IMG/VR virus record: IMGVR_UViG_3300005512_000026
Span: 588-64,587 of that record
DNA length: 64,000 nt
Strand: one strand, 5' to 3'
DNA from: a virus
Taxonomy: Duplodnaviria > Caudoviricetes
Part shown: piece by piece, positions 12,872-62,712 of the stretch
Numbering within the stretch: the stretch's first letter is position 1
Layout of the letters: every line of letters starts with the position of its first letter
Notes under the pieces: model-generated
What the model was told of the DNA's origin: nothing
Databases searched by the model: none
Seen by the model: only the letters and a program-made list of their open reading frames with translations
Translations under genes and position numbers: made by a program

Positions 12872-14335
12872 ATGGCATTCAAACATTCCAGTGTAGGAAC
12901 TGAATTAACTCAGGCAGAGTACGAGGCAACAACAGCGCACGTACTAGACTCTCAGGCAACAGGCGATCTCATTTACGCTGACGCAGCGACAACAATGACG
13001 CGCCTCGGAATTGGCTCTGCTGCACAGTATCTATCGGTTACTGGCGGTGTTCCTGCGTGGAAGTCGATTCTCGATGAAGACAACATGGCATCTAATAGTG
13101 CTACTGATGTCGCGTCCCAGCAATCCATCAAGGCATACGTGGACTCCCAGATTGGCTCCAACAACGAGTTGTCTGAAGTTCTTGCCAACGGGAACACCAC
13201 TGGTGCTAACGACATCATCGTTTCATCAGGGCAAGCGATCACCACGAACACCATCAGCGAGACTACTGCTGCATCTGGTGTCACGATTGACTCGGTGGTA
13301 CTCAAAGATGGTGGCTTTACTACCGCTGGTGATTCCTTTATTGGTAACGGCAACGGACTCGTTGTAGGGCACACGGCGCAGGAGTCAATCGGTGGTGCGG
13401 GTGTTTCCGAGTTGCAAGTATTGGGTACTGCTGGCGGGGATGCTGCCATTGGTGTTATTCGGGTATCAAACGATACTGGCGGAGCCTCGATAACCCTCGC
13501 AAAGTCTCGTGGTGCTTCTATTGGAGCGCATACTGTTGTCCAAGATAACGACCCGCTTGGGCGTATCGACTTTGCTGGTGATGATGGTGCTGACTACAAC
13601 GCTGTCGGAGCAGCCATTCACGCAGAGGTAGACGGAACCCCTGGCACAAACGATATGCCGGGCAGGCTGGTGTTCAAAACGACAGCAGACGGCGCTCAAG
13701 CAGCAACAGAAGCCCTCCGTATCGACTCGTCGCAGAACACCATCATCCCAGCGACAAAACGTTTGTATCTCGACGGTGGCTCCAATACCTACCTAGTCGA
13801 ATCAGCCGGAGACGTTATCGACATCGTTGTAGGTGGCGGGGCGACTATGGCGGTCGGTGCTGCCGGTGCGTGGATGGCAAGTGGTCACAACTTCACGATC
13901 CAGTCTGGGGACAAGCTCTACCTCGACGGCGGATCCAACACGTACTTCACTGAGGCAGCAGCCGGCACCGTGGATCTCTACGTTGGCGGATCTCAGGAGT
14001 TCCGGTTTGAATCAGACGGCGATTTCCACGCAGATGGAGACGTTTATGCCTTCTCGACGACCACAAGCTCCGACATTAGGTTGAAGAAAAACGTCGTCCA
14101 GTTTGAAAACGCTCTGGACACGGTGAAAGCTCTCCGTGGTGTCGAGTGGGACTGGATCCGAGAGGAGAAGGGTCATTCTGCCGGCTTGATCGCACAAGAG
14201 GTCGAGGAGGTTATGCCATACCTCGTCAAGACTGGCGGGATTGCCAAGGGCGAACCCATGAAAACGCTGAACTATAACGGTCTGATTGGTCTGATGGTCG
14301 AGGCAATCAAGGAACTTGCTGAGAGGATCAACTAA
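12872..14335 (+). CDS. Tail fibre with C-terminal peptidase S74 intramolecular chaperone (X N-terminus + shared block + Y C-terminus)
   Basis: 'SDIRLKKNV...GLIAQEVEEVMPYLV...NYNGLIGLMVEAIKEL' S74 signature; spans repeat copy 1. Confidence 0.85.
   Translation: MAFKHSSVGTELTQAEYEATTAHVLDSQATGDLIYADAATTMTRLGIGSAAQYLSVTGGVPAWKSILDEDNMASNSATDVASQQSIKAYVDSQIGSNNELSEVLANGNTTGANDIIVSSGQAITTNTISETTAASGVTIDSVVLKDGGFTTAGDSFIGNGNGLVVGHTAQESIGGAGVSELQVLGTAGGDAAIGVIRVSNDTGGASITLAKSRGASIGAHTVVQDNDPLGRIDFAGDDGADYNAVGAAIHAEVDGTPGTNDMPGRLVFKTTADGAQAATEALRIDSSQNTIIPATKRLYLDGGSNTYLVESAGDVIDIVVGGGATMAVGAAGAWMASGHNFTIQSGDKLYLDGGSNTYFTEAAAGTVDLYVGGSQEFRFESDGDFHADGDVYAFSTTTSSDIRLKKNVVQFENALDTVKALRGVEWDWIREEKGHSAGLIAQEVEEVMPYLVKTGGIAKGEPMKTLNYNGLIGLMVEAIKELAERIN
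13108..13734 (+). repeat. Direct repeat copy 1 (627 bp; exact core 13197-13734)
   Basis: Base-by-base match to 55583-56209; 6 mismatches, all in 13171-13196. Confidence 0.95.
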
Positions 14336-15036
14336 TGGCGATTGGCACAGGGCAAGTCTCTCTGAGCGATATCCAGACAGAATACGGTGGGTCGTATCCG
14401 ATCCAGCTTTCCGAGTATTACTCCAAAGGGAACGCACCTGCGTCCGGTGAGATTCAGCTATGGGCTGACTTTCAAGGAACATCGGCTGACGCTCATACGC
14501 TGATCAGTTCACAAACGGCTAGCGCAAGTTCTTCAATCGACTTCACATCTGGAATCGACTCTACTTACGACGTATACGAGTTGCGTGTGGTCAACGCCCA
14601 CGGCTCAGTAGACCACGCAGAGTTCGGATGCCAGTTCAACCAGTCAGGCGGTAGTGGCTGGAACGAAACAATCCAGTCCGTGTTCTTTGAGTATTACAAC
14701 CGTGAGGACGGGGGGAACCAAGCACTCACGATTCGAGACACGATGGATCAGGCGAACGGGACAGCTCTACAACCGCTTGCCCGAGATGTGTCTCACGACA
14801 GCGACTCAGGGGTGAACCTTATCATGAACATATTTGGGCCATCGAGCACCACGTACGTGACAAACTTCTACTCGGTATCAGTCGAAATGCAGCATCAAGA
14901 TGCCTACCCTGCCTATGCCCGGCAGTCGTTTGCCAGCGGGTACATCAATACGACAGCAGCGATCGACGAGATTCAATTTAGGTTCTCCTCCGGGAACATA
15001 GCCTCAGGTGAGTTCTACCTGTTCGGAGTCAGCTAA
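14335..15036 (+). CDS. Fibre-tip/adhesin-like protein, paralogue 1 (extra N-terminal fibre-attachment domain)
   Basis: N-term 'QVSLSDIQTEYGGSYPIQLSEYY'; then ~180-aa domain shared with next two genes. Confidence 0.55.
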   Translation: MAIGTGQVSLSDIQTEYGGSYPIQLSEYYSKGNAPASGEIQLWADFQGTSADAHTLISSQTASASSSIDFTSGIDSTYDVYELRVVNAHGSVDHAEFGCQFNQSGGSGWNETIQSVFFEYYNREDGGNQALTIRDTMDQANGTALQPLARDVSHDSDSGVNLIMNIFGPSSTTYVTNFYSVSVEMQHQDAYPAYARQSFASGYINTTAAIDEIQFRFSSGNIASGEFYLFGVS

Positions 15037-15575
15037 TGGCACACACTCTGATCTCATCACAAACCGCCTCCACCAGTGCGACGATCGACTTCACATCTGG
15101 AATCGACTCGACCTACGACATATATGAATTTCATTTCATAAACTGCCATCCTGCTACCGACCTTGTTCACTTCCAGATGCAAGCGAATATCGTCGGTGGC
15201 ACAGGCTGGAATGAAACGATCACATCAGGGTTTTACATCTCGTACTACAACGAAGGCGGGACTGACGGGGGTGTGACTTACAACGCCACATACGATCAAG
15301 ACCAAGACACGGCGTTTCAGTCGCTGTTTTACAACGCCAGCAACGGAAGTGACGAATCTCTCTCAGGAATCCTCACGCTTTACAACCCGTCGAGCACAAC
15401 CTTCGTCAAATACTTCACCGCTCGAACTGAGGGACTTCATCACAATGGTCCATATACGATGGACGCTTTTGCTGGCGGTTACTTCAACACAACTTCTGCT
15501 ATCGACGAAATCCGGTTTAAATACTCCTCCGGGAACATCGACGCTGGTGAGTTCAAGCTATACGGAGTCAGCTAA
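15036..15575 (+). CDS. Fibre-tip-like protein, paralogue 2
   Basis: 'TLISSQTAS...IDFTSGIDSTYD.YE' and 'AIDEIRFKYSSGNIDAGEFKLYGVS' shared with neighbours. Confidence 0.55.
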   Translation: MAHTLISSQTASTSATIDFTSGIDSTYDIYEFHFINCHPATDLVHFQMQANIVGGTGWNETITSGFYISYYNEGGTDGGVTYNATYDQDQDTAFQSLFYNASNGSDESLSGILTLYNPSSTTFVKYFTARTEGLHHNGPYTMDAFAGGYFNTTSAIDEIRFKYSSGNIDAGEFKLYGVS

Positions 15576-16114
15576 TGGCATACACGCTTATCTCAGAACA
15601 AACAGCATCGGCAAGTGCGACGCTTGATTTCACCACAGGGATCGACAGCACCTATGACCTGTATGAGTTTCACGTGATCAACGCCCACCCTGCCACCAAC
15701 GCTAAAGACCTCGGCTTCCAAGCCAACGCTGCCGGGCAGACTGGTTTCAACGAGCAGATCACATCATCCCATTACAGGGCGTACCACAATGAGGCAGATA
15801 CCGCAGCATATTTATGGTCAGGCTATCCGGGGCAATCCCAGAGTAACGGAACGGCGTACCAAACCCTGTTCCACGAAGTCGGTAATGGCGCAGACGAGTG
15901 TGCGAGCGGGATTCTCAAAATCTGGCAGCCGAGTTCATCGACTTATCTCACGCACTTCCAAGCGACGTTCACAGGGTATTATGCCGCGAACTTCGTAATG
16001 TTCTCGTTCACGAACGGTTACATTCATACCGCTACTGCGATCGACGAGATCAGCTTCAAGTTTTCTTCGGGGAACATCGACGATGGAACATTCAAACTAT
16101 ATGGAGTCACCTAA
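15575..16114 (+). CDS. Fibre-tip-like protein, paralogue 3
   Basis: Same N- and C-terminal motifs as paralogues 1-2. Confidence 0.55.
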   Translation: MAYTLISEQTASASATLDFTTGIDSTYDLYEFHVINAHPATNAKDLGFQANAAGQTGFNEQITSSHYRAYHNEADTAAYLWSGYPGQSQSNGTAYQTLFHEVGNGADECASGILKIWQPSSSTYLTHFQATFTGYYAANFVMFSFTNGYIHTATAIDEISFKFSSGNIDDGTFKLYGVT

Positions 16115-16917: not shown

Positions 16918-17412
16918 ATGCCTAATAAGAAGATCGATGTTCAGTCGCCGATTCTGGCGTTCCACGGACGGCAGTATCGTTTTCAAGTCCGGGACGCAGT
17001 AACCGGTGAGGTCAAGGTTCGGGACGAAGATCTCGACAAGCCTTTGGAAGGACAGCGAGCGCAGACCCGAGAGGGTGACACTTGCGATCTCATCGAAAAC
17101 CTGTTCACCTCGATTCCTAAGTGGGGTTTTTGGGCGGGTGACTCAGCACACATCAACCGGATCCAAACAGCAGTCAACGACACCCGAGCTAACAAGCTCG
17201 ACGTGATCACGCTCCCGGAGGGAGAATACATCTGGCTCCTCGGGACAGACAGCACCCCCGGATTCCTTGACCGAAAAATGCCGAAATCTGCCTATGATGA
17301 GAACGGATACAAGGACGCAGGGGAAGCGGAGATCCCGACCGTCGGAATGGACGTGTGGAGCCTCAACGAAGATCACTTCCGCACCACATATCTCAAAGCG
17401 AGAACGAGGTAA
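16918..17412 (+). CDS. Hypothetical protein
   Basis: 164 aa ORF. Confidence 0.55.
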   Translation: MPNKKIDVQSPILAFHGRQYRFQVRDAVTGEVKVRDEDLDKPLEGQRAQTREGDTCDLIENLFTSIPKWGFWAGDSAHINRIQTAVNDTRANKLDVITLPEGEYIWLLGTDSTPGFLDRKMPKSAYDENGYKDAGEAEIPTVGMDVWSLNEDHFRTTYLKARTR

Positions 17413-17416
17413 TCGC

Positions 17417-17770
17417 ATGGTTGAACCGCCAAAACAAACTCTCGTAAATGGCAAGCCTGTCGAGGACGAGGATCCCGATGAAACAACAGATAGCACAGTG
17501 GATCAAGGATCTGGCGATCTTCACGGCGAGGGAGCTACTAACGGCAGCGAGGAACAGGCTGGAACCGGAGCAAGATCCGGTAGTGATTCAGCCGACGAAA
17601 CGCAGACTATCCCCACGTCTAAGCAGGAAATCAAAGAGCGAGCCAAAGGCGTAGTCGAACGACTCAGAAGGGATGGGCCAGAGCCGGTTCGGAGGCAAGC
17701 GAAAGGTCTTGTCGACAAGGCGTTCGATGCTATCGACGCTGGCTTTGATCGCTGGTTCGGCGATAAGTAA
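17417..17770 (+). CDS. Acidic disordered N-terminus plus amphipathic C-terminal helices; first gene of Y TatC cassette
   Basis: ATG 17417 after GAGGT; 117 aa; positional analogue of 58911-59273. Confidence 0.6.
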   Translation: MVEPPKQTLVNGKPVEDEDPDETTDSTVDQGSGDLHGEGATNGSEEQAGTGARSGSDSADETQTIPTSKQEIKERAKGVVERLRRDGPEPVRRQAKGLVDKAFDAIDAGFDRWFGDK

Positions 17771-17880
17771 TGGGGACGATTGCCGGGCTGTTCCTAGCGA
17801 TAGGCGGGGCTGTCTACATCCTCGTCAATATCGTCATGAGTTTCGGTGACGACGCTCGGAGCAAGCTCGGCAAGAAGTAA
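17770..17880 (+). CDS. 36-aa single-TM peptide (MGTIAGLFLAIGGAVYILVNIVMSFGDDARSKLGKK)
   Basis: Hand-translated; TAATG coupling at both ends. Confidence 0.6.
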   Translation: MGTIAGLFLAIGGAVYILVNIVMSFGDDARSKLGKK

Positions 17881-18119
17881 TGGGAACATTCTTCACAATC
17901 TTCTTAGTTTCATTCATCGCTGCCTCGGCAGGATCGAACGCGTTGTTCTGGATCTGGAATGATGCCCACCACACGATCGGCTGGCTCATCTTCACCGGGA
18001 TCTTCGTTGCCGTCGCCTACTTCATGGCGGAGATGAAAACCCGAGGAGTTGCCCGAGTGTGGGAACCTCGCTTCCTAAAAGCAAGAAAAGTTGTAGACTC
18101 ACTGACACGACGGGGATAG
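17880..18119 (+). CDS. 79-aa two-TM protein with basic tail (holin-like topology)
   Basis: Two hydrophobic segments, short loop, K/R-rich C-terminus. Confidence 0.6.
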   Translation: MGTFFTIFLVSFIAASAGSNALFWIWNDAHHTIGWLIFTGIFVAVAYFMAEMKTRGVARVWEPRFLKARKVVDSLTRRG

Positions 18120-18141: not shown

Positions 18142-18309
18142 ATGGACAACACATTAGTAATCATCGGAATCATCGCTTTCGTCGTCGCTCTTGGTGGCGG
18201 TGGCTGGCTCTACCGCCGAGGCTTCCTGAGAGGCAAGGCGAAAGAGAACGAGACTGCTGTCGCTGCTGCCGAGGCAGCCGTGGCACAGATGCGCGAAGAA
18301 TCCGCATAA
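18142..18309 (+). CDS. 55-aa single-TM peptide with post-TM RRGFLR motif
   Basis: AAGGAG RBS; MDNTLVIIGIIAFVVALGGGGWLYRRGFLRGKAKENETAVAAAEAAVAQMREESA; stop abuts TatC start. Confidence 0.65.
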   Translation: MDNTLVIIGIIAFVVALGGGGWLYRRGFLRGKAKENETAVAAAEAAVAQMREESA

Positions 18310-19128
18310 TTGCCGCGCTGGTTCTGGCGCTATTTCAGATGGATCGTTCTACCGTTCCTGACGGCTATGGGGACGGCACTTTACTATAGTGCCGACATAT
18401 TCCAGTTCCTCATTGGCCCGGCAGTGGACGCTCTATCGCCATTTGACGGGAAGCCCACCATCACCACGCCGGGCGGGATGGTTTCACAAACCGTCTGGCT
18501 CGGGATCAAGGCGGGAATCGCTGCGTCGATTCCTTCTGTCTGGATTCGACTTCTCTTAGATCTCAGGCATGAAGGTTGGTTTCCCCGTCATTTTTGGTGG
18601 AGGCTTATCGCTTTCACCGGAGCCGGGGCGCTCAGCGCACTAGCTGGACTGTCATTCGTCTATTACGTGATGATGCCGTTCGGCTTGCGGTTCTTGCTCG
18701 GCTTCGGGAATGAAGTCGTTGTCCCGCTGATCACGCTCCCGTCCTATATAGGACTCGTCACCTCGATGGCGTTGTCGGTGGCCATATTCTTTGAGATCCC
18801 GCTGATAATGTTCATAGTCTCCAACATAGGATTGATCGGCTACCAGCGATTCAGAAGGCTCCGGAAGTTCTGGATCCCCACAGCCCTGATCTTTGGAGCG
18901 ATCCTGTCGCCCGGCACAGATCTCGTCAACGCTGCGCTTCTGATCATCCCGCTCATCCTGCTTTACGAGGTTGGAATGTTCATCGTCTGGATCTCCAAAC
19001 CTGCCGACGGTAACTACCTCTGGATCAAGACAATTTGGGGTGCTGTATTCTGGATAGCAACGCGTCCAGTCAGGGCATACCGGAAAGTCGAGAGAGAGCT
19101 AGTCAGGCATGGGATTATTTCGTGGTAG
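18310..19128 (+). CDS. tatC: TatC-family membrane protein, divergent (phage Y)
   Basis: Six TM segments; 'FVYYVMMPFGLRFLL', 'FEIPL', 'GAILSPGTD...IPLILLYEVG' TatC motifs. Confidence 0.8.
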   Translation: MPRWFWRYFRWIVLPFLTAMGTALYYSADIFQFLIGPAVDALSPFDGKPTITTPGGMVSQTVWLGIKAGIAASIPSVWIRLLLDLRHEGWFPRHFWWRLIAFTGAGALSALAGLSFVYYVMMPFGLRFLLGFGNEVVVPLITLPSYIGLVTSMALSVAIFFEIPLIMFIVSNIGLIGYQRFRRLRKFWIPTALIFGAILSPGTDLVNAALLIIPLILLYEVGMFIVWISKPADGNYLWIKTIWGAVFWIATRPVRAYRKVERELVRHGIISW

Positions 19129-19222
19129 GAAACTCTGGACAATCCCCATCGTCTTAGTCGCTGCTTACTACGCAGTTGACCACTGGCTCGAAATAGTCTA
19201 CTACTCCGGCAAGAAGTCGTGA
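19109..19222 (+). CDS. 37-aa TM peptide (MGLFRGRKLWTIPIVLVAAYYAVDHWLEIVYYSGKKS)
   Basis: Hand-translated; overlaps tatC end and next gene (GTGA). Confidence 0.45.
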   Translation: MGLFRGRKLWTIPIVLVAAYYAVDHWLEIVYYSGKKS

Positions 19223-19320
19223 AACGGGTGTGGTTTCACCTCTGGCCACTCCTCCTCCTAGCAGCAGTTTATGGATCCGCAGCGTACGTCGGCGTGTACG
19301 TCTGCTCATGGTGCGGGTAG
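19219..19320 (+). CDS. 33-aa TM micropeptide ending in CSWC
   Basis: MKRVWFHLWPLLLLAAVYGSAAYVGVYVCSWCG; clear homologue at 60715-60810. Confidence 0.75.
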   Translation: MKRVWFHLWPLLLLAAVYGSAAYVGVYVCSWCG

Positions 19321-19358
19321 ACAAAAAGTTGACAAACGCTGTCCGGCTCCCATAGAAT
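19316..19358 (+). promoter_or_regulatory. Sigma70-type early promoter P1 with tandem GTAGAC/GTTGAC repeat
   Basis: TTGACA(19329)-18 bp-TAGAAT(19353); GGTAGACAAAAAGTTGACAAA. Confidence 0.75.
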
Positions 19359-38044: not shown

Positions 38045-38680
38045 ATGACGCTAGCGAGGCTCCCTGACAAGTGGGAGCGCATGACTGACGAGAGCACCAA
38101 GGCGTACCTCGCTTTCAATACCTACTTGCAGCTTGGTCCAGACCGTTCGGTGGACGCAGCCTACCGACTGGCAATGAACGAGCCAGCCGGGAGCAGCAAG
38201 CGAGCATCGGGACGCTGGACGAAGTGGGCGAACACTTATGGCTGGGTCGCTCGGGCTGCTGCGTGGGATGAATTCGTTGCTGCCGAGGCACGACGGGGCT
38301 TGCTCAAAACTGCCGAGGAGAATCAGATCCACAGGGTTCGGCAACTGACAAATACGATGAACCTCGGCATGGCAATTTTAGGGAAGGCGGACATAAATTC
38401 CCTATCACCGAATGACGCTCGAAAGCTCCTGCCTACCGCCCTGCGTGCAATAGAGATGGCGTCCGAATCGCTACGTGAAGAATTCGGTGTGGATGCCCGA
38501 CCGACAACGAACCGTGAGCTGAGCGTCCACGCAGATCTTGGAGCAAAAGGAGACGAAGCTCTTGACCAAGAATCACTCCTCGCTCTTATCGTCAGGGACG
38601 AGCTTGGCGCAGGAGCAAACCCTAGCGAGTTCAGAGTCAACGGCGCGGGGAAAGTTGTACCTATCGAGGGAGGCAGCTAA
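38045..38680 (+). CDS. terS: Terminase small subunit
   Basis: 'WER..DES.KAY.AF..YL.LG..RS...W.W..RA.AWD'; directly upstream of TerL. Confidence 0.7.
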   Translation: MTLARLPDKWERMTDESTKAYLAFNTYLQLGPDRSVDAAYRLAMNEPAGSSKRASGRWTKWANTYGWVARAAAWDEFVAAEARRGLLKTAEENQIHRVRQLTNTMNLGMAILGKADINSLSPNDARKLLPTALRAIEMASESLREEFGVDARPTTNRELSVHADLGAKGDEALDQESLLALIVRDELGAGANPSEFRVNGAGKVVPIEGGS

Positions 38681-40049
38681 GGGATCGCTCGCTGCTTTCG
38701 GTGAACACGTTTATCCCGGCTACCTCTCAACGAAATACACCCAAATGCTAGCGTCCACGTTGGAGGGCGCAGTCAAGGGTGACTACAAACGACTGATCGT
38801 GGAGATCCCACCACGCCACTCGAAGTCTGTCCATGTATCTGAATTACTGCCGGCATGGATCCTCGGTCACAATCCTGACCTGAGAATCATCCTCGCCTCG
38901 TACTCGTCAGGTCTTAGTGCGGCGTTTTCTAGGCGAGTCAGAAACACCATAGAGACGGAAAGGTACGGGATGGTGTTTCCGGGGACTCGTCTGGCTCGCG
39001 ACAGTCGTTCAGCGCAAGTATGGGATATCGCTGGACGTCACGGTGGCATGATCGCTGCTGGTGTGGGATCCGGTATCACCGGACACGGAGCTGACGTACT
39101 GATCATCGACGACCCGGTGAAGGATCGACAGGCTGCGGAGTCTACGACGATCCGTGAGGCGACGTGGGATTGGTATACCTCGACAGCTCGCACCCGTCTC
39201 CACCCCGGAGGTGTAATCATCGTCTGTCAAACCCGGTGGCATTACGACGATCTTGCCGGGAGGCTCCTCGAAGGCAAGGACGATGAGGACAAAGAAGATT
39301 GGACAGAGGTGAAGTTTCCTGCGCTAGCGATAGGAGACGGCGATGTGCTGGGGCGACAGGTAGGCGACCCTCTATGGCCAGAACGCTACTCTGCGGACGA
39401 GCTGCGGGTAATCAAGGCGGAAGTCGGGACGAGGGATTGGACGTCACTCTACCAGCAGGAGCCGACTGACGAGGAGGGAGCGATCTTCCCTCTCAAATGG
39501 TGGAAGTATTACGACCCGGATCGCTTTGTGTTCAATACTCGATTCCGGACTGTTCAGTTTTGGGACACCGCTTTCAAAGAGGATGAAGCAAACGATTATT
39601 CAGTCGGTGCGACGTGGACCAAGAATCCGAACGGCGATGTTATGGCTCGGGACTGGTTCAAGAAGCGTCTGCAGTTCCCGGAGTTGAAGCGAGCGGTGAT
39701 AGCACAGTACGATAAGTGGCGACCTGATATCGTCTACATTGAGGACAAGGGTAGTGGACAATCGCTCATACAAGAGCTTCGTAATACAGGGTTGCCGATT
39801 CGTGCGTACAAGCCTGACGGATCGAAAGAAGTCCGCGCCCACGCTGTTACCCCATATATCGAGAACGGGACTGTATTCTTACCCGAGCGACACCCTCTCC
39901 TCGCAGAGTTCTTGGAGGAGCATGGGAAGTTCCCAGCCGGGAAGCATGACGATATGGTGGACACTACGACTATGGCACTTGAACTAATGGCTCGACGGGT
40001 GGCATCTATGCCTAACCTCGGCGGAGCTGTGAAGGAATCAGCATGGTAG
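38538..40049 (+). CDS. terL: Terminase large subunit
   Basis: 'PPRHSKS','IIDDPVK','QTRWHYDD','WDTA','HDDMVDT'; exact start uncertain. Confidence 0.92.
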   Translation: MEQKETKLLTKNHSSLLSSGTSLAQEQTLASSESTARGKLYLSREAAKGSLAAFGEHVYPGYLSTKYTQMLASTLEGAVKGDYKRLIVEIPPRHSKSVHVSELLPAWILGHNPDLRIILASYSSGLSAAFSRRVRNTIETERYGMVFPGTRLARDSRSAQVWDIAGRHGGMIAAGVGSGITGHGADVLIIDDPVKDRQAAESTTIREATWDWYTSTARTRLHPGGVIIVCQTRWHYDDLAGRLLEGKDDEDKEDWTEVKFPALAIGDGDVLGRQVGDPLWPERYSADELRVIKAEVGTRDWTSLYQQEPTDEEGAIFPLKWWKYYDPDRFVFNTRFRTVQFWDTAFKEDEANDYSVGATWTKNPNGDVMARDWFKKRLQFPELKRAVIAQYDKWRPDIVYIEDKGSGQSLIQELRNTGLPIRAYKPDGSKEVRAHAVTPYIENGTVFLPERHPLLAEFLEEHGKFPAGKHDDMVDTTTMALELMARRVASMPNLGGAVKESAW

Positions 40050-53847: not shown

Positions 53848-56825
53848 TGGCGAACCGATCTGGAACCGTCGCATCAACGAATCCTGCGACCCACACGCAA
53901 TACAACGACCTTCGCCTTGACGCTATTGGCCCATTCCTCGATAACCGCGTGTGGAATGACAACTACGAAGCTCAGTTTGGCACCAACGGAGCCGATGGAA
54001 GGATCCTCTCAGACGGAACCGACTTGATCATCGACGCAAAAGGTGGCGGGGATATCAATCTCCAAGTCTCCGGGGTGACGCGTCTGCAAGTGACGTCCAC
54101 CGGATTCAACCTCATCGGCGACCAGCTATTTGACGACAACGAAAAAGCGACTTTCGGAACCACGAACAAGGGCAGCGTCTATCACGACGGTACGGATCTC
54201 CATATAGACCCTGACGAGGTTGGAATCGGGAACGTGAAAGTCGGAGCCAGTGTGGTTATCGACGCTTCTGAATCGCTGTTCTTTGGAGCAGTCGAGGTGA
54301 TTGCCGACGCTGCGGGTACAACGACGCTCCAAAACATCGACGCTCTGGACGCTACGACAGAGGCGACCATTGAGGCAGCGGTAGATACACTCTCGAATCT
54401 TACGTCTGCTACGTCTCTGTCGATCACAGAGAGCCAAATAAGCGATTTAGGGACGACGGTAGCTCTTGTCGCCGATAACCTCTCTGTGTTCGCAGCAACA
54501 ACCTCTGCTCAACTCGCCTCAGTCATATCCGATGAGACGGGATCCGGTGCGCTTGTGTTTGGGTCAGCTCCCACACTCTCCTCACCTGTCTTGAATACAG
54601 GCGTGTCCGGATCTGCCGTCCAAGACGACGACAGCTTTACGACTCCAAGCGCGACGAAGCTCGCCTCATCTGAATCAATCAAGGCATACGTCGACGCTGC
54701 GATCACGGCAGGAGATCTCGACTTGGCTGCGGACACCGGAACGATTGACGTAGATCACGATTCCGAGATCTTGACCATCGCTGGCGGAACCGGGATCGAC
54801 ACATCTGCCTCGCTCACGACGGTCACGATCGCTATTGACGCTACGGTGGCGACGCTAACTGGCGCTCAGACGTTGACGAACAAGACGATCAACTCAGCGT
54901 CGAACACGATTACGATCACTGAATCAAGCATTTCGGATCTTCAAAGCTACCTCTTGCCGGGAACAGTCACCGAGGCTGATATCTCAGATCTCGGCATAAC
55001 GGTTGCAATGGTCGCTGACAACCTCTCGGTATTCGCTGCGACAACCTCGGCGCAGCTTGCGGGAGTAATCTCAGACGAGACAGGCTCGGGCGCACTCGTT
55101 TTCGGAACCTCTCCAACAATCGCTACCCCATCATTTACAGGTAATGTGACGATGGCGACTAGCACCAACTTGCTGTCCGGTGCTGTAACCATTCTCTCAG
55201 ACTCAGCGGGCACGATGACGCTCTCAAACATTGATGCGTTGGATGCCACCACAGAGGCGACGATAGAAGCGTCCATAGACACACTCGCTAATTTGACCTC
55301 TGCGGCTTCTCTGGCGACAGTAGGCACTATTACGGCTGGTGTATGGCAGGGGACGGACGTTGGTGTTGCTCATGGTGGCACAGGTGCAAGTACAGCAAGC
55401 GCAGCACGATCTAATCTCGGCGTTGCGATTGGTTCTGACGTACAGGCGTATGACATTGAACTGGCTGCGGTTGCGGGGCTGACCTCTGCTGCCAACAAGG
55501 TTCCACGGTTCACGGGATCAGGGACAGCCGACCTTTTAGACTTCCTTGATGAAGATGGGATGACATCTAACAGCGCAAACGCTGTCGCGTCCCAGCAATC
55601 CATCAAGGCATACGTGGACTCCCAGATTGGCTCCAACAACGAGTTATCTGAGGTTCTCGGTAACGGGAACTCCACTGGTGCTAACGACATCATCGTTTCA
55701 TCAGGGCAAGCGATCACCACGAACACCATCAGCGAGACTACTGCTGCATCTGGTGTCACGATTGACTCGGTGGTACTCAAAGATGGTGGCTTTACTACCG
55801 CTGGTGATTCCTTTATTGGTAACGGCAACGGACTCGTTGTAGGGCACACGGCGCAGGAGTCAATCGGTGGTGCGGGTGTTTCCGAGTTGCAAGTATTGGG
55901 TACTGCTGGCGGGGATGCTGCCATTGGTGTTATTCGGGTATCAAACGATACTGGCGGAGCCTCGATAACCCTCGCAAAGTCTCGTGGTGCTTCTATTGGA
56001 GCGCATACTGTTGTCCAAGATAACGACCCGCTTGGGCGTATCGACTTTGCTGGTGATGATGGTGCTGACTACAACGCTGTCGGAGCAGCCATTCACGCAG
56101 AGGTAGACGGAACCCCTGGCACAAACGATATGCCGGGCAGGCTGGTGTTCAAAACGACAGCAGACGGCGCTCAAGCAGCAACAGAAGCCCTCCGTATCGA
56201 CTCGTCGCAACTAGTCGGCATCGGTGCTGCGTCTGGTGGCGCAAGGCTGGAAGTCGTAGACTCTGGGCTGGCTTCATCGACCGTTTTCAAAGTCACAGCC
56301 GACGATGGAAACCCATACGGAATAATCGTTGGTAACGACACGTTTAGCACATCAGACGTTGAGGGACTTGCCCTCTATGTAACCAACGCTGGTGAGTCAA
56401 AGATTCGTGCGCTTGGAACTGGCGGTGTACTCCACTTAGGGACACCGGCAGCATCAGATCAGGTAGTGATCGACAACTCAGGGAATATGACAATCAAGGG
56501 TGACATCAACCCAAATGCAGACGGGACTCTTGACCTAGGTACGCAGACAACTGCTCAGTGGGCAAACGTGTGGGCAGACCTTGTAAACGGTTCTGACATC
56601 GCTATGGCGAACGGTGTACGAATGCTGGAGTCAGAGTTGTATGAAGGCTACGGTCGTGGCTGGGCGGTCGGCTACGATGCTGACTGGGAAGACGGCAAGG
56701 CTATCTGGAAGAACCGTGACATGATTGGCAACGGCAAGCCGATGTTTGCTGTCACTGAAGATTTCATCGAGTTCAACGGGAAACGTATAACTAAGGCACA
56801 ATGGGCTGCATTAGCAAACGCATAG
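53847..56825 (+). CDS. Tail fibre (Y N-terminus + shared block + X C-terminus), with internal repeats
   Basis: Two copies each of '[28 protein letters not shown]' and '[15 protein letters not shown]'; spans repeat copy 2. Confidence 0.8.
55583..56209 (+). repeat. Direct repeat copy 2 (627 bp; exact core 55672-56209)
   Basis: Matches 13108-13734 at constant offset 42,475. Confidence 0.95.
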
Positions 56826-58779: not shown

Positions 58780-58914
58780 ATGAAAGCACTAGAACGGAAA
58801 GCGTGTATCAGATGCAAGCACGAGTGGTGGCCTCGAACAACTAGAGAGCCAGTGAGATGCCCTGCTTGCAAATCCCCTTACTGGAACAAGTCACGACAGA
58901 GGAAATCTAAATGA
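58780..58914 (+). CDS. 44-aa zinc-ribbon protein
   Basis: CIRC...WWPR....P..CPACKSPYWN; hand-translated. Confidence 0.6.
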   Translation: MKALERKACIRCKHEWWPRTTREPVRCPACKSPYWNKSRQRKSK

Positions 58915-59273
58915 CAACTAATCCAGAAACACCGGAGACCGACAACACTGAAGAAGAGGTTGTCGAGCCTGCTCCTAAGAAGAAGCCTGTGCGTAAGCGT
59001 AAGCCAGCAGCAAAGAAGCCGACTACTCGTAAAGCATCTCCCAAGAAGGTTCCGACTACACCAAAGGAATTTACTGAGGAAATCAAAGAGAACCTTACCG
59101 AGACTAAAGATCGTGTTGTTGAAGAAGCCGTTCAGCCAGCAAAAGAACTTATAGATAAGTGGGGCGGTATGGCGGACTACGCTGTGGATGCTGTGCTAAA
59201 CGCTAAAGATAATGCTCTTGCTTGGTGGGATGGTTTCGTAGGCAATGAGAAGAAGAAAGAAGAAGACGAGTAA
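58911..59273 (+). CDS. Charged disordered N-terminus plus amphipathic C-terminus; first gene of X TatC cassette
   Basis: 120 aa; analogue of 17417-17770. Confidence 0.6.
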   Translation: MTTNPETPETDNTEEEVVEPAPKKKPVRKRKPAAKKPTTRKASPKKVPTTPKEFTEEIKENLTETKDRVVEEAVQPAKELIDKWGGMADYAVDAVLNAKDNALAWWDGFVGNEKKKEEDE

Positions 59274-59537
59274 TGCACCCTTTAGGCTGGATGCTTCGCT
59301 TCTTTCTAATAGCGCTGCTTGGTGCAGCAACTGCGGAACAGGTTATGTCCTGGCTGCTACCGAATGTAGGTGATCCCGAAAAGGGGGTTACGTTTCGTGG
59401 CAGTGGGAACACTGATCGGAACTGTCGGGACGATGCGTAACTTTACATCATCTGTTCGTGGATACCGTCAAAAGGTTTTTGGCGGGGTAAACAAGTTTGG
59501 CGTTCTGGGTAAATTCAGCCGCCGAAAGGAACTGTAA
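59273..59537 (+). CDS. Two-TM holin-like protein interrupted by a +1 frameshift at a G5 run (59383-59387)
   Basis: Frame 0 stops at 59440; +1 frame gives second TM and basic tail to 59537. Confidence 0.5.
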
Positions 59538-59665: not shown

Positions 59666-60718
59666 TTGCACCCTCGTTCATCTTACGAACGGTGGTACAC
59701 AGTCGGGGAACGGTGGCGATGGACGGTAATGCTCTCTATTGCCGCCTTTTTCGCCGCTGCTCTCTCGACGTTTTATTGGCACGAAGAAGTGTTTGCTTTT
59801 CTTCTTGCCCCAGCAGACGGCAAACTATCTCCCTTCGACGGTAAGCCTATCGTCACTGTTCCCACAGGAGGCTTCGGAGCCACCCTGGGAATATCACTAT
59901 CAGCAGGCAAGATAGCTGCTATACCTGTTTTTGCGGTTGGCATTGTTGCCCTTGCAAAACCCCTGATGCCCCACAGTTGGTGGCAGCGCTTCTTAGCCAT
60001 CAATGTGACTGCTGGCTTTACCCTGTTTACTCTTGGTTGCGTGTTCGTTTACTACGTCATGCTTCCGGTGAGTATGAGGTTTCTTCTCTCGTATGCAGAC
60101 GACACCGTTGTATATGTAATAACCCTTGAAGCGTACTTAGAGATGGTGTTCGCCCTGTTCCGGTGGATAGGGCTGATCTTCTTGATTCCGTTGGGAATGA
60201 ACATGCTGGCTCGAACAGGTCAGTTTTCGTATCCAAGAGTCAAAGCGCTCTACAGACTGATCTTTTTTCTGACGTTGTTCTTTTCAGCACTTATCTCCCC
60301 AGGGCTTGACCCTGTGCTTACCGTAATGGTTGCTGTGCCGATGTATTCGCTGTACTTGGTCGGACTCGGTGGCGTGTGGGTCGTTAGGCCAGAGACAGGG
60401 AACTTCTTGTGGTTCTGGACGATGAAGCCTTGGTACGACAGATTGGGAATAACATGGCTGTCGTTGAGGGTTGCGGCTTTGGCGGTCTTGCTGATCGAAG
60501 CTGTTGTGTGGCTAGTAGACGCTGCACTGAGAACTGTTATCGGTCTAATGCGAGCGCTTCGGTCGCTCGTAGCGGCGCTTATTCGGTCTCGCCACGCACT
60601 GTATGCGTCAATCAGGCTGGAACAGCGTCTCTGGCGACTCTGGCTGCGTTTCTGGAGACTACCTGAACGCATTGGCTACTGGCTGGCAGACAAGATTGCT
60701 AATGTATTCTCACGATGA
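59666..60718 (+). CDS. tatC: TatC-family membrane protein, divergent, with long C-terminal extension (phage X)
   Basis: 'LSPFDGKP','FVYYVMLP...RFLL','ALISPGLDP...VPMYSLY'. Confidence 0.8.
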   Translation: MHPRSSYERWYTVGERWRWTVMLSIAAFFAAALSTFYWHEEVFAFLLAPADGKLSPFDGKPIVTVPTGGFGATLGISLSAGKIAAIPVFAVGIVALAKPLMPHSWWQRFLAINVTAGFTLFTLGCVFVYYVMLPVSMRFLLSYADDTVVYVITLEAYLEMVFALFRWIGLIFLIPLGMNMLARTGQFSYPRVKALYRLIFFLTLFFSALISPGLDPVLTVMVAVPMYSLYLVGLGGVWVVRPETGNFLWFWTMKPWYDRLGITWLSLRVAALAVLLIEAVVWLVDAALRTVIGLMRALRSLVAALIRSRHALYASIRLEQRLWRLWLRFWRLPERIGYWLADKIANVFSR

Positions 60719-60810
60719 GATTCCCACGCTGGCTGCTAGACCTGTTGCTGCTGGCGGCAGTGTACGGCATTACTGCGTACTGGGGAGTCTACGTCTGCGG
60801 GTGGTGCTGA
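60715..60810 (+). CDS. 31-aa TM micropeptide ending in CGWC
   Basis: MRFPRWLLDLLLLAAVYGITAYWGVYVCGWC; homologous to 19219-19320. Confidence 0.75.
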   Translation: MRFPRWLLDLLLLAAVYGITAYWGVYVCGWC

Positions 60811-62048: not shown

Positions 62049-62180
62049 CTAGTACCACCCAGTAGCCCTGCCGAGTCCAAGGATTGCTAGCCCAAAGAAC
62101 ACGGCAGAGCCACCGTAGACGCTTACCATCATGGACACATGGCGTACTAATGCCCACCCATGCAGGCGTTCGTTACTCAA
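62049..62180 (-). CDS. 43-aa membrane peptide
   Basis: Hand-translated, TTG start, fills gap between S26 gene and rusA. Confidence 0.35.
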   Translation of the reverse strand: MSNERLHGWALVRHVSMMVSVYGGSAVFFGLAILGLGRATGWY

Positions 62181-62712
62181 CGAAGTACCCGTCAGCAATG
62201 CCGACTACTTTGTAGATAACGTTTCGGTTTTCTACGATGCAGCGGTCACTGATGTACGTGTTGTCGCCACGAGTTCGGAAGCCGATGTCACCAGCAACGC
62301 TCGTAACTCGGTGAGTTGCCCGGCAGTCTCCGTAAGGGCTGTCGTTCTGTGCAAACCCAATAACGTCACCAACTCCGACTTCGATGCCGAGTTCCAGCGG
62401 ATGCCAGATCACGAGTAGTAGGTCGGTGTCGTTGATGAACGGAGCCATCGAGGTTCCCTGTACCCGCATGTCGGTGAACCTGCCCTGTGGGGCAAACTCA
62501 GCCTCGAAGACAAAGTACGGAACGATCTCACCGGTGTCTGCTCGGCGTACCGGAGTGTTCGGGTCGAGATGTTCGTAAGCTGGCTGGACTTGTGAAATGT
62601 CCCACTCGCCATTACCTTCGCCCCAGTTGTCGGCGGATACTGTCGCCACAGTGACGGTTGCCAGCATCGCAATGATTGCCAGTACCGGAAGGATTCTAAA
62701 TTTCAGATTCAT
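62173..62712 (-). CDS. S26 signal-peptidase-like protein with its own N-terminal signal peptide
   Basis: 'VQGTSMAP','GDVIGF','ATHRV','RTRGDN'; N-term MNLKFRILPVLAIIAMLATVTVATVSA. Confidence 0.75.
   Translation of the reverse strand: MNLKFRILPVLAIIAMLATVTVATVSADNWGEGNGEWDISQVQPAYEHLDPNTPVRRADTGEIVPYFVFEAEFAPQGRFTDMRVQGTSMAPFINDTDLLLVIWHPLELGIEVGVGDVIGFAQNDSPYGDCRATHRVTSVAGDIGFRTRGDNTYISDRCIVENRNVIYKVVGIADGYFVE

Follow-up and report, generated by a model that had tools for sequence, protein, structure and literature searches.

What does a phage do with a protein of the TatC family that appears no longer able to read a twin-arginine signal? TatC is the membrane receptor of the twin-arginine translocation (Tat) pathway, by which bacteria export folded proteins, and the pathway's only component to read the export signal. 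Few features of the family are as conserved as its signal pocket. The question is raised by a stretch of 64,000 nucleotides of viral DNA (Duplodnaviria; Caudoviricetes), here called the window, which runs from position 588 to position 64,587 of the 64,587-base IMG/VR record IMGVR_UViG_3300005512_000026 and is therefore nearly the entire record. Two genes in the window code for TatC-like proteins, which we call Y and X:

18310..19128 (+): Y, a TatC-like protein of 272 amino acids, with a six-helix TatC core and a 40-residue Trp/Arg-rich C-terminal helix
59666..60718 (+): X, a TatC-like protein of 350 amino acids, with a TatC core and a long helical C-terminal extension

Alignments support well the conclusion that canonical twin-arginine recognition has been lost in Y, in X and in the clade of viral proteins to which both belong. 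Because every residue that grips the twin arginines is replaced, Y and X almost certainly do something other than ordinary Tat export.

The TatC fold and the rebuilt signal pocket

Membership of the family is clear from the PF00902 (TatC) hidden Markov model (HMM), which scores Y at 94 bits and X at 107 bits against a cut-off of 25.1. Both proteins fall under the cut-offs of the equivalog TIGR00945, which defines a functional tatC (81 bits for Y and 94.6 bits for X; cut-off 132.7) and of the archaeal model TIGR01912 (70.9 and 68.8 bits; cut-off 192.6). They share 34% identity with each other, non-canonical motifs included, and the sole PHROGs phage family that they match is phrog_36238, whose function is not annotated and whose matches to X and Y are weak (E-values of 1e-10 and 6e-10). 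AlphaFold (AF2) models built from 30-sequence alignments have predicted local distance difference test (pLDDT) scores of 84.5 for Y and 85.8 for X. When the models were compared with solved structures using VIA-align, seven TatC entries matched with Z scores of 14.5-18.3 over approximately 225 residues (root-mean-square deviation 4.3-8.1). TatC entries are the only strong structural matches, and unrelated ones reach Z scores of 5-7. The Y model gives Z scores of 15.8-17.0 to TatC structures and 5.1 to the next unrelated match, and the X model reaches 18.3 with the E. coli TatC of the TatBC-MdoD complex. Y and X are true structural relatives of TatC with its six-helix glove fold.

The N-termini of the two proteins are not in doubt. 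The TTG start codon of Y abuts the TAA stop of an upstream open reading frame (ORF) of 55 codons, and the TTG start codon of X sits one codon past an in-frame TAG. Neither frame can therefore be extended upstream, and no in-frame start adds a HLxELR segment to Y or X. Homologues of Y at 76% identity share its PRWFWRYFRW opening and homologues of X open with a conserved Y[ED]RGYSVGRRWRW segment, so that both N-termini are translated sequence rather than artefacts of ORF calling.

The residues that should be present at the pocket are defined by a 2026 cryo-electron microscopy structure of substrate-bound E. coli TatBC, in which the signal is contacted by H12, E15, F94, Y100 and E103 (PMC13323110). 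The first signal arginine makes a water-mediated bond to E15 and is stacked under F94, the second forms a salt bridge to E103 and packs on Y100, and the consensus phenylalanine occupies a pocket made by F94, L9, H12 and L13 (PMC13323110). The E103A change alone abolishes binding in E. coli, and a change of E15 does likewise (PMC13323110). We assigned the equivalent positions in Y and X from four independent alignments that agree, made with MAFFT (60-200 sequences), with phmmer against Aquifex and Nitratifractor TatC, and profile against profile (probability 100%, E-value 5e-57). By E. coli numbering, the residues are as follows:

H12: no counterpart in Y, which begins at about the R17 position; V in X
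E15: no counterpart in Y, for the same reason; R in X; a conserved Arg in the clade, or a gap in the larger MAFFT alignment
F94: D84 in Y; L in X
Y100: P in Y; P in X
E103: F95 in Y; W in X
E170, in the fourth transmembrane helix (TM4): E, kept, in Y; L in X

The initial annotation of this DNA had claimed that HLxELR is absent from both proteins, that their first cytoplasmic loops lack the WxFxxPGLxxxE pattern, that X has FLIP in place of FEIP and that the SPGxD motif between the fifth and sixth transmembrane helices (TM5-6) is kept. The alignments agree on every count. Y begins with MPRWFWRYFRW, has the first cytoplasmic loop LDLRHEGWFPRHFWW, and carries FFEIPL in TM4 and SPGTD in the TM5-6 loop. 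X begins with MHPRSSYERW... and has the first cytoplasmic loop AKPLMPHSWWQRF, followed by FLIP in TM4 and SPGLD in the TM5-6 loop. No equivalent acidic residue is retained at the canonical contacts by MAFFT, phmmer or profile-profile alignment. The annotation's broader statement that substrate recognition is lost likewise stands for the canonical contacts, all five of which appear to be replaced throughout the clade.

We quantified the replacement by comparing an 82-tip viral clade with 113 canonical TatCs retrieved by the same search. H12 is present in 2/58 clade sequences and 109/111 canonical ones, an acidic residue at position 15 in 2/82 and 109/111, F or Y at position 94 in 2/80 and 113/113, and an acidic residue at position 103 in 2/79 and 88/113. 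The loss is less complete at position 170, where E or Q is found in 51/82 clade sequences and 112/113 canonical TatCs. In place of the lost contacts, the clade carries recurrent motifs of its own, an N-terminal GxRx[RK]W and, in the loop, [KR]PxxPxxWWRF. Net charge in the N-terminal segment is +3.7 for the clade and -0.24 for canonical TatCs, and tryptophan is threefold enriched (3.95% versus 1.28%).

A second claim of the initial annotation, that the scaffold and the side that docks TatA and TatB are retained, survives in part. M205, T208 and Q215 are the polar-cluster and TM5-6 docking residues for TatA and TatB. The fold is kept, P48, Y126 and F169/P172 are retained in both X and Y, S or T is found at position 208 in 81/82 clade sequences (canonical, 106/109; Ser in both X and Y), and D211 is found in 78/82 (canonical, 108/112). 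Retention does not extend to Q215, which is A in Y and T in X and is present in 11/81 clade sequences versus 79/112 canonical ones, where M or L also occur, or to E170 in X.

The viral clade and clues to its host

We searched 1.84 billion representative proteins with a profile built from the relatives. Approximately 45 clusters score above 200 bits, with matches that extend as far as the non-canonical tail at the C-terminus; the first canonical TatCs appear at about 190 bits. Trees group X and Y in a single clade with a support of 100 (FastTree, 195 sequences; IQ-TREE, 58 sequences, with a value of 100 in the Shimodaira-Hasegawa-like approximate likelihood ratio test, SH-aLRT). The clade comprises about 80 sequences on a stem branch of 0.54 in the IQ-TREE tree, and the phage protein is no more than about 30-37% identical to any of the cellular TatCs found.

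The clade is apparently virus-only. The nearest ESM Atlas clusters are labelled as 83-100% viruses, and 28 IMG/VR contigs, mostly of 35-45 kb, each carry one clade copy. Among 50,697 records of cultured phages there is a single weak partial match only. When one genome per prokaryotic species is considered, the sole clade member comes from a Planctomycetota genome bin, where its contig is 10 kb long, and no second genome with a clade copy was found among 401 Planctomycetota genomes. A literature search returned no published description of phage TatC proteins, and the main paper on TatC diversity makes no mention of phages.

For close viral pairs, the ratio of nonsynonymous to synonymous substitution rates (dN/dS) is 0.12-0.17 over the whole gene and 0.05-0.27 in the N-terminal and loop segments. 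These low ratios indicate that genes of the Y and X type, and the segments that once formed the pocket, are under purifying constraint. The clade is an old virus-specific subfamily with its own replacement motifs and its own C-terminal extension.

The presence of two clade members in one record is probably explained by its structure. Two tail-fibre genes contain the copies of a 627-bp direct repeat (13108-13734 and 55583-56209; 6 mismatches; offset 42,475). The record is probably composed of an apparently complete 42.5-kb phage, with Y, set inside part of another, related phage, with X, as a result of recombination or cointegrate formation or of chimeric misassembly. This reading fits the relatives, which have one TatC-like gene per 35-45-kb genome. 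Downstream of the Y tail fibre are three tandem paralogues of 233, 179 and 179 amino acids (14335-16114), with repeated 110-nucleotide segments that are 66-74% identical and a conserved C-terminal SSGNI..G.F.LYGV motif; these are probably interchangeable fibre tips. The C-terminal extension of X contains an insertion of about 60 residues (60420-60640) relative to the nearest homologues of 280-300 amino acids, and the region is modelled as a single long helix (residues 262-330). The X part also includes a second gene related to protein export on the opposite strand (62173-62712, -). Its product of 179 amino acids has a GTSMxP motif and, in its N-terminal part, a membrane or signal segment; among NCBIfam models it matches the archaeal-type signal peptidase I (TIGR02228) best, at 36 bits and under the cut-off of 51.85.

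The motifs might be missing from Y and X simply because the TatC of the host lacks them too. This scenario is unsupported, since the housekeeping TatC of the Planctomycetota bin and eleven others of the phylum keep SFGDHLEELR, and the bin's own housekeeping TatC also keeps the F...YHHERR loop; the only candidate host lineage thus retains the motifs. The Planctomycetota housekeeping TatCs lie in ORFs of approximately 400-490 codons, all twelve with a canonical HLxELR. One of them (L112, from the Planctomycetota bin, contig C240; 401 codons) has a large insertion between the third and fourth transmembrane helices, like the Myxococcus TatC structure 9e03.

Other clues to the host do not converge. 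The nearest canonical TatCs in the tree come from SAR202 and Dehalococcoidia genome bins. A sigma-70 region 4 domain in a related locus and a sigma-70-like promoter next to Y (described below) point to a bacterial host. The large terminase of the Y part (38538-40049) has thousands of metagenomic relatives, of which the only named one lies on a 665-kb contig of a Methanomassiliicoccus bin and is 47% identical. This terminase relative conflicts with the bacterial-type promoter.

The gene cassette around the TatC-like genes

Both TatC-like genes are embedded in sets of small genes, which we compared between the window and 15 related IMG/VR loci. The features accompanying Y are as follows:

17267..17770 (+): first cassette gene, coding for a charged protein of low complexity that is acidic in its N-terminal part and has a C-terminal amphipathic helix; it probably starts at an internal codon
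17770..17880 (+): candidate ORF of 36 codons with one predicted membrane helix; its start overlaps the preceding stop
17880..18119 (+): protein of 79 amino acids with two predicted membrane helices and a basic C-terminal tail, a holin-like build
18142..18309 (+): single-helix protein of 55 amino acids directly upstream of Y, judged by ORF and hydropathy, with a TatA-like build
19109..19222 (+): hydrophobic candidate ORF of 37 codons that overlaps the end of Y
19219..19320 (+): membrane micropeptide of 33 amino acids ending in CxWC, the last gene of the Y cassette
19329..19358 (+): sigma-70-like promoter (TTGACA, 18 nucleotides, TAGAAT) right after the cassette; 11/12 matches, by consensus match only

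Those accompanying X are as follows:

58911..59273 (+): charged protein of 120 amino acids with an acidic N-terminal end; no family above threshold
59273..59440 (+): hydrophobic protein of 55 amino acids, with a homologue in related locus L018
59540..59662 (+): single-helix protein of 40 amino acids directly upstream of X, built like the 55-residue partner of Y
60715..60810 (+): membrane micropeptide of 31 amino acids ending in CGWC, its start overlapping the stop of X; L015 has a near-identical peptide

The same order recurs in several loci: a charged protein, a hydrophobic protein with one or two predicted helices, a single-helix protein, the TatC-like gene and a CxxC peptide. The charged first gene has counterparts of 107-138 amino acids in 9/15 related loci, and the product of 17267..17770 has no family match. 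Its members (17267-17770, 58911-59273, and those of L006, L015, L018, L025 and L032) are strongly acidic in an N-terminal stretch and share a conserved amphipathic helix at the C-terminal end, with a tail of K/R and then D/E. In charge, the acidic end complements the basic surface that has been rebuilt in the TatC-like proteins. The 79-residue protein has counterparts of 73-92 amino acids in 9/15 loci, and membrane ORFs of 55-64 codons occupy the same place in three more; it has no family match, and its ESM Atlas scores are below 0.9 and uninformative. Sequence similar to the C-terminal part of the 37-codon ORF is found in frames after the TatC-like gene in L005 and L032. A membrane micropeptide of approximately 30 residues ending in CxxC follows the TatC-like gene in both subfamilies, in Y and X and at L015:8720-8914, L018:6893-6979 and L025:8925-9011.

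The most constant neighbor is a single-helix protein of 30-65 amino acids, which immediately precedes the TatC-like gene both in the window and at 15/15 related loci. In the partner of Y, an acidic/polar N-terminal end is followed by about 13 hydrophobic residues and then by a GGGG hinge and a basic tail. Among 16 aligned partners, N, D or E occurs within the first 8 residues, followed by 13-16 hydrophobic residues and a K/R-rich tail, with a GGG(G) hinge in those of the Y type. These proteins have the build of TatA: a short helix, a Gly hinge, a basic amphipathic tail and an N-out orientation by the positive-inside rule. An earlier suggestion that YRRGFLR in the 55-residue protein mimics a twin-arginine motif does not hold, as the RR is not conserved and homologues have KFFKGK or RVFKGK.

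Starts and stops within the cassette overlap or abut, and tail-fibre genes lie upstream. Read from sequence, the predicted promoter at 19329..19358 marks the end of a late unit, and the cassette is the final portion of the late operon, where phage lysis genes are usually found. Searches for recognisable lysis and Tat components were largely negative. No match to the TatA family PF02416 was found in the record even at an E-value of 10, and no ORF of the record with at least 60 codons combines an RR motif with a hydrophobic stretch, as would be expected of twin-arginine cargo. No endolysin (lysozyme, amidase, M15/M23 peptidase or transglycosylase) is among the Pfam matches listed for window ORFs of at least 95 codons, and none is among the 25 families listed for 150 cassette-flanking ORFs of ten related phages (loci L005-L026). 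Matches to holins and spanins are sub-threshold only (Phage_holin_3_6, E-value 0.18; Rz-like spanin PHROGs, E-values 0.008-0.009).

Candidate roles and comparison with known systems

The explanation that we prefer, to which we give a little short of an even chance, is a re-purposed, signal-blind TatC scaffold that works with phage-encoded partners in a late membrane event. We favor it because the clade is old and constrained and has its own motifs, C-terminal extension and small membrane neighbors. Under this model, a cellular tatC would have been captured once by an ancestral virus, and its cytoplasmic signal-peptide pocket would have been rebuilt on the stem of the clade. Acidic and aromatic contacts would have given way to a conserved basic, Trp-rich surface composed of the GxRx[RK]W segment, the PxxPxxWWRF loop and the new Trp/Arg-rich C-terminal helix, and the six-helix glove would have been kept together with the TM5-6 loop that holds TatA and TatB in cellular systems. 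Twin-arginine signals would no longer be readable in the known way. The protein would therefore not plug into the host Tat system as a normal receptor and might instead bind partners supplied by the phage, such as the upstream single-helix protein of TatA build, with the other small membrane proteins packed around. The assembly might act late to thin or perforate the cytoplasmic membrane locally, or might allow passage of a phage product that lacks a twin-arginine signal.

Several observations weigh against this model. Acidic residues do occur near the old pocket: D84 of Y, which only the Y subfamily conserves, occupies the exact position of F94; in the X subfamily, residue 8 is conserved as E or D; and the residue that is E15 by X's own numbering pairs with I14 of E. 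coli, immediately ahead of the E15 equivalent. In principle such residues could grip arginine differently, which we consider unlikely; they are not common to both subfamilies and are set in a strongly basic surface. Across the clade, the segments of the former pocket are less conserved (0.45 and 0.48) than the protein average (0.56), and they may be merely a tolerated surface rather than a new binding site. The single-helix partner has no detectable TatA homology: the 55-residue partner of Y has no PF02416 match, hhalign of the 16 phage partners against 11 TatAs gives a probability of 10% that covers the helix only, and the likeness is architectural only. Finally, the endolysin result covers Pfam matches to ORFs of at least 95 codons, with 25 of 28 and 25 of 41 families listed.

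The conservation of the replacement motifs within subfamilies, under purifying selection, could also mean that the rebuilt pocket is a retargeted receptor, which reads a signal other than twin arginines on a phage protein, recruits host TatA, and exports a folded cargo before or at lysis. Retention of the T208 equivalent and of D211 in the docking loop is compatible with this role, and the product of the first cassette gene, where present, has an acidic N-terminal part complementary to the new surface. However, that acidic protein lacks a membrane-inserting region, we found no candidate cargo with a hydrophobic signal-like segment and no cargo motif common to the clade, and Q215 is lost, as is E170 in X. 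We judge a retargeted receptor to be unlikely, at about one chance in five.

Somewhat less probable again is a dominant-negative inhibitor, which would mix with host TatC or soak up TatB or TatA and so block export, for example to weaken the envelope or to bar superinfection. The initial annotation had offered this role and, as its other option, a substrate-independent protein that deforms the membrane. A protein that has lost its signal pocket and kept the fold, S/T208 and D211 is what such a mechanism calls for. TatC acts as an oligomer with TatB wedged between neighbors (PMC13323110), and for this reason a blind subunit could poison the host Tat system. A poison subunit is expected, though, to remain close to the host protein, whereas the phage protein has at most about 30-37% identity to cellular TatCs found and sits on a long stem branch. 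It also has its own C-terminal extension and conserved small partners, and its gene is placed in the last part of the late operon instead of with early takeover genes. A re-specialised machine accounts for such features better than a simple poison subunit does.

We assign a very small probability to Y and X being residual twin-arginine receptors or spare TatCs, in which arginine would be bound instead by D84 in Y, and in X by E8 and the E15 of its own numbering. The exact placement and subfamily-wide conservation of D84, and the conserved acidic residue 8 of X, speak for this role, but none of the three residues is common to both subfamilies, and a conserved Arg, on a strongly basic surface, takes the place of E15. 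In addition, single changes of E103 (E103A) or E15 abolish binding in E. coli (PMC13323110), the record holds no twin-arginine cargo of the kind sought, and both proteins score under the NCBIfam equivalog cut-off. That the gene is a decaying passenger without function, as the loss of the family's hallmark site and of E170 in X might suggest, has next to no chance of being correct given dN/dS of 0.12-0.17, about 80 intact relatives with conserved synteny and high model confidence.

A bolder form of the scaffold model, which we consider improbable, holds that the TatC-like scaffold, the TatA-like helix and the micropeptides form a self-contained, twin-arginine-independent machine derived from Tat, and that this machine is the egress or lysis device of widespread, endolysin-less, uncultured phages of 35-45 kb, possibly on hosts without a conventional wall. 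If true, a protein translocase would have given rise to a new class of phage lysis system, and the machine might reveal how common environmental phages without a recognisable endolysin leave the cell. The viral branch is of value beyond this proposal. It keeps the fold and the docking loop, inverts the charge of the pocket and is maintained by purifying selection, and for these reasons it is a natural separation-of-function variant. With signal binding taken away, it could show what effect the TatC scaffold has on the membrane, a matter relevant to the unsettled question of how membranes are thinned and opened by Tat.

Compared with bacterial TatC (E. coli, Aquifex aeolicus; PF00902, TIGR00945), the phage proteins belong to the same family by HMM and have the same six-helix glove fold, with P48, Y126, F169/P172, the T208 equivalent and D211 conserved. 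They differ in that all five signal contacts are replaced, with a conserved Arg as the E15 equivalent, in the loss of Q215 from X and Y and of E170 from X, and in the extra Trp/Arg-rich C-terminal helix. They also score under the equivalog cut-off, and their genes lie in a late cassette with no recognisable TatA. As in tatA/B-tatC operons, a gene for a small single-helix protein lies directly upstream.

The minimal TatAC systems of Bacillus subtilis (TatAd-TatCd and TatAy-TatCy), which sometimes have dedicated cargo, share with the phage cassettes the pairing of a polytopic TatC-type protein with an adjacent short N-out single-helix protein. Unlike the phage proteins, the Bacillus TatCs keep HxxELR, F94 and E103 (aligned sequence P0036), and the Bacillus TatA partners match PF02416 whereas the phage partner does not. 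The literature search revealed no known lysis cassette with a TatC-type protein. Phage holin lysis cassettes differ from those described here, in which no above-threshold holin and no endolysin or spanin was found, but both stand last in the late operon, include several small membrane proteins whose C-terminal tails are charged, and have tightly overlapping genes.

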